From positions 34,968,001 through 35,032,000 of the forward strand of contig OX597818.1 in NCBI GenBank assembly GCA_951406725.2: DNA of 64,000 bases, written 5' to 3'. Below are positions 20,636-63,689 of this stretch, piece by piece. Numbering within the stretch: the stretch's first letter is position 1; each line of letters begins with the position of its first letter. Source of the DNA: Octopus vulgaris. Its lineage: Eukaryota. The notes below the pieces were generated by a model. The model searched no databases. It was not told where the DNA came from and saw nothing but the letters and a program-made list of their open reading frames with translations. The position numbers were made by a program, and so were the translations under genes.

Positions 20636-21411
20636 GATAAGAAATGGAGCAATAATAACACTTAGAAGTAGATCTTTGGTGTTTTAAAGTTATTTAATAA
20701 CAAGGAAAGTATGTTTACAGCTGTTTCAGTATATCAAGCTCCAACTGATATATGGAATTATGGACCTTACTAAAATGTAAGACTATTGAATTAACAAACA
20801 TTTTACTTCTTTTTTTTTCCTTTCCTTTCCTTACATTCTTCTTATTTACTTCTATTTATCTTTGACATATAATTGTTCTGATGATGTCTATCAATTGCAA
20901 CAAGGTAAATGAAAATTTACCCCAGCTATATATACTGAAACAGCTGTAAAATATTATCATCATTATTAAATGACTTTACGAGGGGCGTTCAATAAGTAAT
21001 GCCTCTGACCCACTTGCAGTTGTTTGATCTAGCTGAAAGTTTGCATGTGCAATTATTTATATCTCTATAGATTAAGTGGCAAATTACAGCTCTGAACTAA
21101 TTGTGGTTTCTGATTTACAGGTGTTTGAACTGAGTCAAGTGTGAAACGGAGCTTGTTGAGTGTCGAGCAGTGATGCGGTTTTTGTATTTGAAAGGACGCA
21201 CACCACGGGAAACTTTTGATGAAATAAAAGTAACTTATTGTGATGATGCCCTATCATATGACCTTGTAAAACGCTGGCATCGTGAATTCAAACATGGTCG
21301 GAACTTTGTGGAAACAGCTTCCAGATCTGGTCGCCCCTTTCTGTCATTGATGAGGCATCTGTCCGTACCAATGATCTACTTCTAACTGTTATTATTGCTC
21401 CATTTCTTATC
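20636..21411. mobile_element. Fold-back element with hammerhead-like motif, interrupted by mariner
   Basis: Left arm 20636-20733 pairs with 20930-20977 plus 21367-21411; CTGATGA 20878-20884 and GAAACAGCTGTA 20937-20948. Confidence 0.7.
20979..21366 (+). mobile_element. Mariner 5' fragment (irritans-like)
   Basis: TA|CGAGGGGCGTTCAATAAGTAATGCC TIR; ORF 21170 FLYLKGRTPRETFDEIK...VKRWHREFKHGR...RSGRP is the N-terminal HTH. Confidence 0.88.
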
Positions 21412-21539
21412 GTTTTTATATATATATTCAACCACAGTTTTACCTTTTAAATTACCTACTGCCGTATACCTTATAACAAAGACCATACATACTGAGGTAA
21501 TACCAGGAGTGCCTTTGGATACACCTGTTCCTTAGGCAG

Positions 21540-21688
21540 TTAGTGGTTGGCGTTTAGGAAGGGCATCCAGCTGTAGAAACACTGCCAGATCAGACTGGAG
21601 CCTGGTGCAGCCTCCTGGCTTACTAGACCCCAGTCAAACCGTCCAACCCATGCTAGCATGGAAAACAGACGTTAAACGATGATGATGA
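21540..21688 (+). mobile_element. RTE 3' end (family B)
   Basis: Consensus plus GAT tail. Confidence 0.8.
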
Positions 21689-21700
21689 TATATATATACA

Positions 21701-22083
21701 TGAGGAGTGGCTGCGGGGCAAGTAGCTTGCTTACGAGCCACATGGTTCCAGTTCAGTCCCACTGCATGACACCTTGGGCAAGTGATCAAATCCTTGTGAG
21801 TGGATTTGGTAGATGGAAACTAAAAGAAGCCCAATATATATATATATATATATATATATATATATGTATGTGTGTGTATACGTTTGTGTGTCTGTGTTTG
21901 TCCGCTCAACATTGCTTGATAACCGATGCTAATGTATTACGTCCCCGTAACTTAGCGGTTCGGCAAAATAGAATAACTACTAGGCTTACAAAGAATAAGC
22001 CCTGGGGCCGATTTGCTCGACTAAAGGTCGTGCTCCAGCATGGCCACAGTCAAATGACTGAAACAGGTAGAGAGTAAAAGAGT
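21701..22083 (+). mobile_element. SINE family A
   Basis: Consensus match. Confidence 0.85.
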
Positions 22084-23261
22084 ATATATGTATACATATA
22101 TATATACATATACATATGTGTATATATATATATATATTTATATTTATATAATGGTAACATATATTTGCCAATTAAGTGTGACATCCTATACAGGACAGTG
22201 CTACTGATGTTTATAGCCCCAGGAAGACATCTCCTCCAGCAGGCTAATGACACATATTCTGTGTCCTATTAGTATTTGCGAGGGGAAGTCATTGCTCCCA
22301 TTTCTAGCCTTATGTGATACACACAGACTCTAGTTTCAGTGTGTTTTATATGTATATATATATATATATATATCATCATCATCATCATCATCATCATTTA
22401 GCGTCCGTTTTCCATGCTAGCATGGTTGGACGTTCTGCTGGGGTCTGTGGCAGAAGGCTTCATCAGGCCCAGTCAAATCTGGCAGTGTTTGACTGGGCCT
22501 ATATATATATATATATATATATATATATATATATATATATATATATATATATATATATATATATATATATATATATGTATGTATGTATATGTGTGTGTGT
22601 GTATCTGTGTGTGTGTGCCTATGTCTGTGTATGTATGTATGTGTGTGTGCCCGTGCACGCGCGCATTTGTGTATAGGACCATATAGTTTTGCTATATTTA
22701 CCTATTGTCTTTTTTGCTAAGTACAATATTGCTATAGATTTTCCTTTGTCTGGCTAATCTGCGTTATAGTTAAACTAGTTAATACAGCAAAAGACAATGT
22801 AAACCTAATACAAAATCAGCTGAAATGATCAAAGTTTGCTGATTCTTATCAGTCCATGACATCGACATAATTGTTGGAAGTTGCTCTTTCTCTACGCAGA
22901 TAATCAAAGCTATGATAGCCTGAATTAAGTTTTGATAGAACTATAAGATAAACACAGAATTTGTTTTCTCTTTCACTCTATTTGTTTTTTTTTTTAAATA
23001 TATTTTATTTTATTAGACTTTTGGTGTATTAATACTCAACATTTCCCCACATGTACAATAATACACATGTACACAAAAAAAAATATATAACCTATTTTGT
23101 GTCCAAAACAATAACACAATTTTAACAAACAACAGGAAAACAATAGTAATTAATGAAATGAAATGAAATTAAAGGCAGCATGACTAATAAATTATAAAAT
23201 TAAAAAAAATAACGAGGGTAATAACAAATGATTATCTTAAGCAGAGTATTATTAATTATGA

Positions 23262-23494
23262 GGGCAACAAGCTGGAAGAATCGTTAGCACGCCGGGCGAA
23301 ATGCTTAGCAGTATTTCGTCTGCCGTTACGGTCTTAGTTCAAATTCCACCGAGGTCGACTTTGCCTTTCATCCTTTGGGGGTCGATAAATTAAGTACCAG
23401 TTCACACTGGGGGGATGTTATAATTGACTTAATCCGTTTGTCTGTCCTCGTTTGTCCATTCTATGTTTAGCCCCTTGTGGGCAATAAAGAAATA
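23262..23494 (+). mobile_element. SINE family C with TSD
   Basis: Consensus match; flanked by TATTATTAATTA direct repeats. Confidence 0.85.
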
Positions 23495-60904: not shown

Positions 60905-61204
60905 ATATAAAGTTCAATCATTACAGTTTGATGAGATTGCAAATCTAAAGTTGCTGTTTGTATTAGATATAATTGAGTAACAATCTAAAACATTTCATTA
61001 TATCAATCATTTTTCCTGTTTCAAGAAATCTCAGATTTTTTACTGAGTTCTTTCTCACACTTGCCCTAAGATCTCTCTCTCACCAGTTTGCTGTTCTCAC
61101 ATTTATGCCCGCTCTGATTAATTTACAACCCTATGAAGAAGTCCCTATAGTAGCTAAACTTCCCTCAAATCTCACACTGTCATTTTAAATGTTTGTTCTT
61201 TCTC

Positions 61205-61478
61205 AAGCCACGCCTGGCTCATAAGGGCCAGTTTCCCAGTTTCCTTGGCATATAGGTTCCCCACCTGGACAGGATTTCGGTCTGTTGCAGGTGAGCTGCA
61301 AGATGCAGGAGGAAAGAGTGAGAGAAAGTTGTGGTGAAAGAGTCAGCAGAAGTTTGGCAGTACCTTCTGCCAGAGCCACGTGGAGCTTAGATGTTTTGCT
61401 CATAAACACACACATCGCCCAGTCTGAGATTCGAACCCACGATCCCACTGCTCTAACCACTAGGCCATGTGCCTCCAC
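61205..61478 (-). mobile_element. SINE family E variant with V-domain-like tail
   Basis: tRNA head and GAAAGAGTGAGAGAAAGTTG segment shared with 37945-38255, but a different 3' part. Confidence 0.72.
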
Positions 61479-61537
61479 TCATATTAAATAGGGAAAAGTG
61501 ATATTAGATATAAGGTTTGTCCCAGATACACCTTTAG

Positions 61538-61757
61538 CCCTTTTGTTACTGCATTTATTTTGAGATGCTCTGTGTTTCTTTCAATTACTTTAAATATAAC
61601 AAAAAATTTAGTAAAATAACTTGGTTATCATTAAGCTAGTGTTAGGAACATAAATTGTGACTAAGGTTTGGTGGAAGATTTTTATTCAAAACTTATTAAA
61701 ACAAGACATTCGTACTCAGAGCCAGAATTGGTTTCAGCCGGGTTGGTAACGAAAGCG
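61538..61757. mobile_element. piggyBac-type MITE, complete
   Basis: TTAG|CCCTTTTGTTAC ... GTAACGAAAGCG|TTAA. Confidence 0.8.
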
Positions 61758-61865
61758 TTAATAAGATTTGATGGTCACTGACAGACTCTCATTGATCATT
61801 GGTCTGCTTAATCAGGATTGACATTCAGTCAAACAGAAACTACAGCTTGATCATTTTGTTTTAGT

Positions 61866-62205
61866 CTTTTATTCTTTTACTTGTTTCAGTCATTTGTCTG
61901 TGGCCATACTGGAGCACTGCTTTTAGTCGAGCAAATCAACCTCAGGACTTATTCTTTGTAAGCCTAGTACTTATTTTATCAGTTTCTTTTTGCCGAACTG
62001 CTAAGTTATGGAGACATAAGCACACCAGCGTTGGGGAGACAAAAACAGACACACAAACATTCACACACACACATCATGGGTTTCTTTCAGTTTCAGTCTA
62101 CCAAATCCACTCACAAAGCTCCAGTCAGCCATAGTTGAAGACTGGGACTGAACTTGGAACTATGTGGTTGGGAAGCAAATTTCTTACCACACAGTGATAC
62201 CATGC
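61866..62205 (-). mobile_element. SINE family A
   Basis: Consensus match with deletions. Confidence 0.8.
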
Positions 62206-63689
62206 ATATATACAAACATTATATTCATATGCACATCAAAGTGCACTTTAAAAGTGATAATGATGTTTTTTCAATTACTATAAACACCACACACACACAT
62301 TTATGAATTTATAATATTATATTATAAATATATTATAAATATGATAATTTAAATATAAATTCGCATACATAAATACGTTTTGATATATTAGTGATTCCTT
62401 TGAATAATTAGAGTTTAAAACAGCCAACAAGTTTGTGATTCTTAAATTCAATTCTACTGTAAGCTTTTCCATTCTTGTGGTTGATTTTAGCCATTCCTAC
62501 CTCTTCCTTAATCAAGCAGATCAATGATTAAAGACATTCAACCCATGACCATTCCATTTTTTTTTTATATAATTGATATATTTTGCACTACTTTATCCAA
62601 TTAGCCTTCATTTTACTTTTCTTTTTTTTTTTTCGATGATAGTAGAGAATTATTTCAGAGAGATTTTGTTATCATTTCTAGCAGGTTGATTGATTACAAA
62701 AATTTCCCCTTTTTTGGTTGCCCAGTTTATATTCAAATAGTACAGTAGTTCTATTTACCTTATTTCACCTATCCATTGAGGAACACATACCATATCATAT
62801 GGAGAATGCTTCTTGTAATAGACTAGTATCTTATCCAGGAATATATTTATCCCTCATCTGCTTAATTACTTGCCCTTTAAAATCCTTATGGATTTGATGA
62901 AAATATAAAGAAAATTGAGGTTTCCAGATGACACAGTACATATCTAGCTATTGCATTTGCTCCACCCATTCTCTGTTGATCAGCAAATTGTCATTCTCTA
63001 ATATATAACCTTTTGTGTTTTAATATTCATTTTTCTTTATATGAATTATAAAAATTAAAATATAAATAAATAGGGACAAGGAATGGCTTTGTGGTTAAGG
63101 AAGCATGTTTTGCAGCTTCAAGGTTTTGGGTTCAATCCCATTGCACAGCATCTTGGGCAAGTGTCTTCTACTATAGCCCCAGCTTGAACAATGTCTTGTG
63201 AATGAATCTAGTATATAGGAACGGTGTGGAAGCCCTTTGTATATATATATATATATATATGTGTGTGTGTGTATGTGTATTATTTCCCTGATGAAGGCTG
63301 GTTTATGGGGTTAACCTATGTTTCCTGTTCATAAAGGGTTTAACTTTATGGTGTATTTTCAGACCCCAAGACCTGTTGGCTTATGACCTCTTTAAAATAT
63401 GGAAGGGAAAAGTCTGGATTATCTCCCTTTGCTAATGGCTATTGACTTCCAGCTGGGCTGCCATCGATCAGCTATAAGGATAAACAATATGTGACTACCC
63501 TCCTCTCCTGTTAGCCATCAACTTCTGGCAGTTCCCAAAAAGTCAACAGAAATCTCCTAAATGCAGACATATATGTGTGTATGTGTGTGTGTGTGTATGT
63601 GTGTGTGTATGTGTGTGCGTGTGTGTGTATGTGTGTGCATGCGTGCATGTGTGTGTGTGTGTATGTGTGCACGAGTGTGTGTGTGTCCT

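Follow-up and report, generated by a model that had tools for sequence, protein, structure and literature searches.

The 64,000-nucleotide stretch of Octopus vulgaris DNA analysed here (contig OX597818.1, positions 34,968,001 to 35,032,000 of assembly GCA_951406725.2; hereafter the window) is a dense patch of tail fragments of Penelope-like elements (PLEs) that bear known minimal hammerhead ribozymes. It is microsatellite-rich, with 37% G+C. A sequence-only reading had noticed a shared hammerhead grammar at nine or more loci, and had assigned these to a diverse population of non-coding, PLE-dependent retroelements. On inspection of the letters, the listed motifs were found at their coordinates, and genome searches with each site, made in the 2.80-Gb assembly of 227 contigs, placed the nine window sites in eight dispersed repeat families, which we call A1, A2, B, C, D, E, F and G. 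The motif copies are as follows.

20875..20951, plus strand: family D minimal hammerhead; CUGAUGA core, ACAGCUGU stem III, weakened stems; 3' end of a Hydra-type PLE
30828..30862, plus strand: family A1 hammerhead; canonical core, decayed stems; in a 5'-truncated terminal repeat that runs up to (TA)n at 30958
36290..36372, plus strand: family B hammerhead; ACAUAUGU stem III; U4A private to the window copy
38537..38617, minus strand: family C hammerhead; intact grammar; left arm of a fold-back at 38483-38905
38736..38848, plus strand: family C hammerhead; right arm of the same fold-back; broken stem I, short tandem duplication in stem II
44969..45097, minus strand: family E hammerhead; intact grammar; one arm of a fold-back at about 44860-45375
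46411..46448, minus strand: family F hammerhead; inverted arm; core broken by G12A
46655..46692, plus strand: family F hammerhead; U3-A8 core; 3' end of a PLE with reverse transcriptase (RT) and GIY-YIG
48362..48396, plus strand: remnant of a family G hammerhead; U3-A8, with AAUU as stem III of the family; truncated at the fold-back centre, so that the 5' strand of stem I is missing
51593..51606, minus strand: 3' half motif only; GAAA, ACAGCUGU and UA, beside (TA)n
51688..51722, plus strand: family A1 hammerhead; core CCGUCGA (U4C and A6U), truncated at stem I
53730..53765, minus strand: family A2 hammerhead; A6U core CUGUGGA (family CUGUNGA); element at about 53645-53900

Most of these copies are likely inactive. 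The grammar reported at nine loci holds in the sense that each family has a consensus hammerhead, but the core YUGAnRA is broken at 36290 (CAGAUGA, for CUGAUGA in family B), 51688 and 53730. Five of the eleven main motifs are intact by our relaxed descriptor (38614 minus, 45094 minus, 46658 plus, 51691 plus and 53761 minus), whereas those at 46448 minus, 38736 plus and 48362 carry the core, stem I and truncation damage listed above. Two weaker traces had also been proposed; the one at 51593 survives as a 3' half, and the one at 63288 was rejected, since the repeat of which it is part is a different one, with no core in its two other copies. The copy of this dispersed repeat spans window 63288-63500 (73-83% matches in loci L321 and L353).

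The copies differ in their surroundings. Family D has a short inverted arm at 20672-20740, the other arm of the family E fold-back (45154-45338) has a damaged core, and the arms of the family F fold-back (46361-46510 and 46593-46742) are 95% complementary. An insertion of 145 nt, with a (TA)n tract on either side, holds the A1 copy at 51688, and a 47-mer of family G has 286 exact copies. From 20978 onward, the family D copy seems to be broken in its 3' end by what we take, from its terminal sequence, to be a mariner-like element. Further fold-back or inverted-repeat elements, with no hammerhead detected in them, lie at 35951-36239, 30430-30630, 28915-30433 and 60772-61990.

The excess of descriptor matches over shuffled sequence, in the window and in 200 kb of arbitrary genome, means that the motif is real genome-wide. 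A first descriptor, which allowed no unpaired base after A9 (no 9.1 bulge), gave two window matches with the core YTGANRA against 0.02 in 100 shuffles; it recovered one named locus (38614), or two with a relaxed core, and was dropped because it missed most loci and matched off them at 10172 and 33251. The relaxed descriptor gave five window matches against 0.08 +/- 0.33 in 60 local dinucleotide shuffles, and five in the 200 kb (20 stretches of 10 kb) against 0.2 +/- 0.4 in 20 shuffles, one of these last five fitting no modelled family. Since this descriptor was tuned on the families of the window, the 200-kb test is the sole independent one. Profile scans found nine sites in the window and four in the 200-kb sample; the window is thus about 7 times denser, and the 20 stretches extrapolate to about 56,000 sites genome-wide (95% range 15,000-143,000). 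Exact patterns counted 20,563 copies of A2 and 13,563 of A1, with none for the reversed controls. An Rfam scan of the window showed no hammerhead family among the matches listed (best 150 of 180, E<=10).

Each family consensus is a complete minimal type I hammerhead, made of stem I, core, stem II, GAAA, a self-complementary stem III and U-H. The core is CUGANGA with C3-G8 in B, C, D and E, and UUGANAA with U3-A8 in F and G, in all six cases with GAAA and UH, while the consensus cores of A1 and A2 are not canonical. U3-A8 replaces C3-G8 in F, G and a further family, P1. Stem III is ACGU, AAUU, ACCGGU, ACAGCUGU or ACAUAUGU across the families, which bears out the short palindromic stem III of the sequence-only reading. 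Despite their unrelated sequences, the nine family alignments all show pairing in stems I and II, although stem I is just 2-3 bp in C, D, E, F and G, and the core is conserved above its flanks in eight of the nine; these alignments hold 24-85 copies each, taken as top matches and therefore query-biased, with possible double sampling of some sites. Median identity to consensus is 90-98% across families, and family B, with a median of 98%, is young.

The proposed link to PLEs was borne out as well: six of the eight families match the 3' end or terminal repeat of a coding PLE elsewhere in the genome. The A1 repeat lies ahead of a 5' region and RT and flanks full RT-GIY-YIG frames; in 7 of 10 regions, selected for a 5' repeat and an RT match, it stands on either side of the coding sequence. 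The A1 parent is complete, with RT, a C-terminal GIY-YIG and repeats on both sides, the Pfam matches to RVT_1 and GIY-YIG both being below cut-off. In 8 of 30 loci, each of them 5'-truncated, family A2 lies downstream of the endonuclease end of a related PLE that has the same orientation. In 7 of 30 loci, family F is preceded on its own strand by PLE coding sequence, and its parent is visible from late RT to endonuclease. These three have Neptune/Nematis-type parents, with a DKG motif, a CX4CxxC linker and a GIY-YIG at the C terminus. The parents of B, D and E carry a Hydra-type endonuclease, whose translations have no CCHH and do have CxxC and CxH. It lies about 590 nt upstream of family B in 18 of 30 loci (17 distinct sites, loci fetched with an upstream probe), and precedes D and E, in the same orientation, in 4 of 30 loci each, with two more inverted for E; conversely, D lies downstream of 8 of 30 Hydra-type endonuclease loci. 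The CxCX5C linker is present in D and partial in decayed copies of E. The DKT motif was seen in the intact 960-amino-acid frame of locus L359, which is related but not a window family, D itself yielding RT fragments only. An open reading frame (ORF) beside family D in L229 and L235 was not counted, as it is part of an F-like element with its own hammerhead. In the window itself, tblastn with one Neptune-type and two Hydra-type queries found no PLE ORF, in line with the sequence-only reading.

The genome also holds young PLEs. One flank contained a PLE fragment, and from it an abundant young family was reached, whose open frames span 753-782 amino acids (RVT_1 E 9e-8); it served as the query behind the family F result. 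A very young Neptune/Nematis-type family (L031-L060, L152, L184-L187) accounts for 16,448 endonuclease candidates, with many frames of 753-782 amino acids and many inverted pairs; it has its own U3-A8 hammerhead with one extra A after GAAA, and was not found in the window. Locus L359 (G000:C5:142943000-142951000) and related matches represent a young Hydra-type PLE whose intact frame carries long Asn-rich inserts and has no Pfam match. At L152:270-400, the coding region of another PLE family, itself 5'-truncated, directly abuts an A2 repeat.

Family copies have a fixed 3' end and variable 5' truncation, and (TA)4 or longer lies within 130-300 nt downstream, at family-specific distances, in 14 of 21 to 30 of 30 copies per family (30/30 for B, 21/26 for D and 14/21 for E; copies that the pattern did not parse are left out), against a background of 12-20%, so that the reported association with (TA)n stands. 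Three coding PLE copies (L185, L188 and L189) have an inverted truncated copy at their 5' end, which points to the origin of the window fold-backs. The opposite-polarity pairs noticed earlier are therefore present, but the idea that elements had been converted to hairpins with a ribozyme in each polarity gives way: these are the inverted 5'-truncated copies known from PLE insertions, just as the (TA)n adjacency is known PLE behaviour. Fold-back transcripts of C, E, F and G are predicted to be 79-86% paired, as long hairpins; both hammerhead motifs would thus be masked, and the two polarities are likely a by-product.

Two families depart from the accepted core. The A2 core is CUGUNGA (A6U), with 17,224 exact 27-mers against 204 with the canonical A6. 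Among the first 100 listed copies with a free core, all from one chromosome end and counted by hand, the core counts are C3 100, U4 97, G5 99, U6 97, G8 96 and A9 100, and further on G12 95, A13 100, A14 100 and A15.1 98, while N7 is U in 40, A in 24, C in 23 and G in 13. Within the motif, the polymorphic columns of 57 aligned copies are N7, one loop II base and H17, the last being U or A in 56, C in one and G never. Decay of CpG was rejected as the source of variation at N7, because U7 stands at 40 against 4 for A8, and A7 and G7 are common. In A1, position 4 is C in 73, U in 25 and A in 2 of 100 listed copies (U4C in about 73%), and CpG decay was again rejected, with 25 for U4 against 3 for A5; U4C occurs in both terminal repeats of most full-length A1 copies. 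Our literature searches found no report of a natural A6U core among the matches listed; Lunse et al. 2017, reportedly an account of many PLE hammerhead variants, may cover it.

We propose that the window motifs are, very probably, minimal type I hammerheads from the 3' terminal repeats of several PLE families, left as short 5'-truncated or inverted fragments beside (TA)n, and that the parents likely cut tandem transcripts as dimers. By what is established of PLE biology, the GIY-YIG endonuclease would nick at (TA)n, and reverse transcription would begin at the 3' end of the element and usually stop early, giving tails of 100-400 nt. Such tails would retain the hammerhead because it lies 55-210 nt from the 3' end, and a second, inverted truncated copy would produce a fold-back. 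In the RNA, the palindromic stem III may bring two copies together, which would then be cleaved after U16.1-H17 to free a unit-length element RNA. The A1/A2 lineage retains the fold, with a U4C or A6U core, and probably cuts slowly.

Folding predictions give mixed support to cleavage as a dimer. For B, F and P1, no more than 1.6-3.0 kcal/mol separates the double hammerhead from the predicted dimer minimum. Several observations weigh against our proposal. The predicted double hammerhead is 10-17 kcal/mol above the dimer minimum for A1, A2 and G, where it is less stable than two monomers, and 7-21 kcal/mol above it for C, D and E. The A1 core (0.912) is not more conserved than its flanks (0.930), as an exception to the conservation seen in the other eight alignments, and few copies (0-4 for each pair) show compensatory change within their family. 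On the side of the parents, no full-length one for A2 appeared among eight regions, which held thumb and endonuclease pieces only, and no ORF was reached for family C (30 + 24 loci) or family G (19 + 20 loci). The endonuclease of B is without the CxCX5C linker, and the clade names of the parents are assigned by motifs.

A rival view, close to that of the sequence-only reading, takes the short copies for non-autonomous elements of retrozyme type, which PLE proteins would mobilise in trans after transcription, cleavage and circularisation. An ORF is absent from most copies, and in bioRxiv 10.64898/2026.07.22.740005 animal retrozymes are derived from PLE repeats. Internally deleted A1 elements, units of about 1-2 kb with a repeat at each end, occur in 3 of 30 loci (L154/L007, L159 and L182), and A1 repeats stand in tandem, about 335-360 nt apart and beside coding copies, in L279 and L283. 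These units and arrays mean that non-autonomous forms are not absent from the genome, and they are possible starting points for retrozymes. The hammerhead copies of the window, in contrast, are single or inverted and never head-to-tail, and the 5' ends vary continuously and reach PLE coding sequence in six families. Because the same sequences lie at coding PLE ends, with a fixed 3' end and variable 5' truncation, they are mainly 5'-truncated tails of autonomous PLEs rather than a separate non-coding retrozyme class; we regard the retrozyme-like explanation as improbable, and the claimed population of non-coding elements is mostly not upheld. For C and G, the hairpin shape and the lack of a recovered ORF could also suit miniature inverted-repeat transposable elements (MITEs, derivatives of DNA transposons) with hammerhead-like text by chance. 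We give this very little credence, since the consensus of both families forms the full motif, linear copies share long sequence upstream (more than 570 nt in C, more than 600 nt in G), the centres of G fold-backs differ between copies, and C ends at (TA)n in 15 of 21 copies. A piggyBac-type MITE was rejected for G on those variable centres and linear copies. Families C and G resemble the other six. Two C copies 3.4 kb apart enclose a long interspersed nuclear element (LINE) insertion and not a PLE ORF, nor does a PLE ORF lie between two G copies with a spacing of 6 kb.

For A1 and A2, it is a credible thought, short of probable, that the motif no longer cuts, and that its fold has been retained for a different task, for instance RT binding or RNA pairing during integration. 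The dominance of A6U over the canonical core and the unfavourable predicted dimer fold agree with this, as do the strong loss of Mg2+ activity caused by A6C (PMC7151607, PMC3088659) and the spread of Naiad PLEs without canonical hammerheads (PMC8557442). Against it, A2 varies precisely at N7, loop II and H17, the positions that cleavage chemistry leaves free; polymorphism touches 0 of the 30 constrained columns and 19 of the remaining 85 (Fisher p = 0.003, indicative only, as the copies are related). That variation is confined to these positions suggests selection, and A6U may be a working variant. We tentatively put forward, from sequence patterns, that CUGUNGA could be a functional, selected natural core, in which U6 (and U4C in the sister family) would have been fixed by successive Penelope master elements while catalytic positions, stems and U-H were kept; it might serve as a slow, or ion- or protein-gated, ribozyme that times the processing of retroelement RNA in tens of thousands of copies, although we hold this to be somewhat doubtful.

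Subfamily variation in tens of thousands of copies is a natural experiment on the hammerhead core, which marks the positions that matter. Should A6U turn out to cut, the hammerhead core as now accepted would have to be broadened, and searches by descriptor would be giving too low a number of genomic ribozymes; should it turn out not to, the fold would have some further part to play in retrotransposition. The role of PLE hammerheads is open to direct testing in this genome, since it holds young PLE families whose open frames are long (753-960 amino acids).

Among known systems, the closest are the minimal hammerheads in the terminal repeats of metazoan PLEs (Cervera and De la Pena 2014, PMC4209133). 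They share with ours the unpaired 9.1 base that separates 9 from 10.1, the pair G10.1-C11.1 (here in most of the families), the palindromic 15.2-16.2 and the U3-A8 variant, and likewise occur as many unrelated families per genome, mostly in solitary copies, with opposite-strand pairs 100-700 bp apart; their activity as dimers is described there as low. The copy number differs, being 34,126 matches for two families here against up to about 9,000 per genome there, and family-wide A6U and U4C cores are unmentioned in its results and discussion, with no A6U strings in two supplementary text files. The main text of PMC13282606 mentions neither ribozyme nor hammerhead. Our Hydra-type parents agree with the Hydra-clade PLEs of Craig et al. 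2021 (PMC8557442), which include Hydra-1_Obim with a hammerhead: the C-terminal GIY-YIG has no CCHH and has CxxC and CxH near its end, the CxCX5C linker is found (in D), the hammerhead is near the 3' end, insertion is biased to (TA)n, and inverted 5'-truncated copies occur. The hammerheads described there differ in their 8-nt even palindromes and long stem II, family B differs in lacking the linker, and the hammerhead rows covered in File S2 all have A6, unlike A2. With Neptune/Nematis-type EN+ (endonuclease-containing) PLEs, the A1 parent shares the DKG motif, the CX4CxxC linker, the C-terminal GIY-YIG and terminal repeats at both ends; the cores differ, being U4C in A1 and A6U in A2, and the clade is assigned here by motifs. 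Retrozymes without long terminal repeats (non-LTR), tied to PLE repeats in bioRxiv 10.64898/2026.07.22.740005, also carry type I hammerheads in short non-coding repeats related to those of PLEs; unlike them, the window copies are tails of coding elements and not head-to-tail arrays, and short arrays occur elsewhere only beside PLE ORFs. Natural variants at the same core positions are recorded in PMC3088659 and PMC7151607, as A6C in phage Bcep176, whose activity in Mg2+ is low, and as U4C, from a viroid, whereas here A6U is fixed in a family of more than 17,000 copies. The family-wide A6U and U4C cores set this case apart, and the rest is a further instance of published PLE biology.

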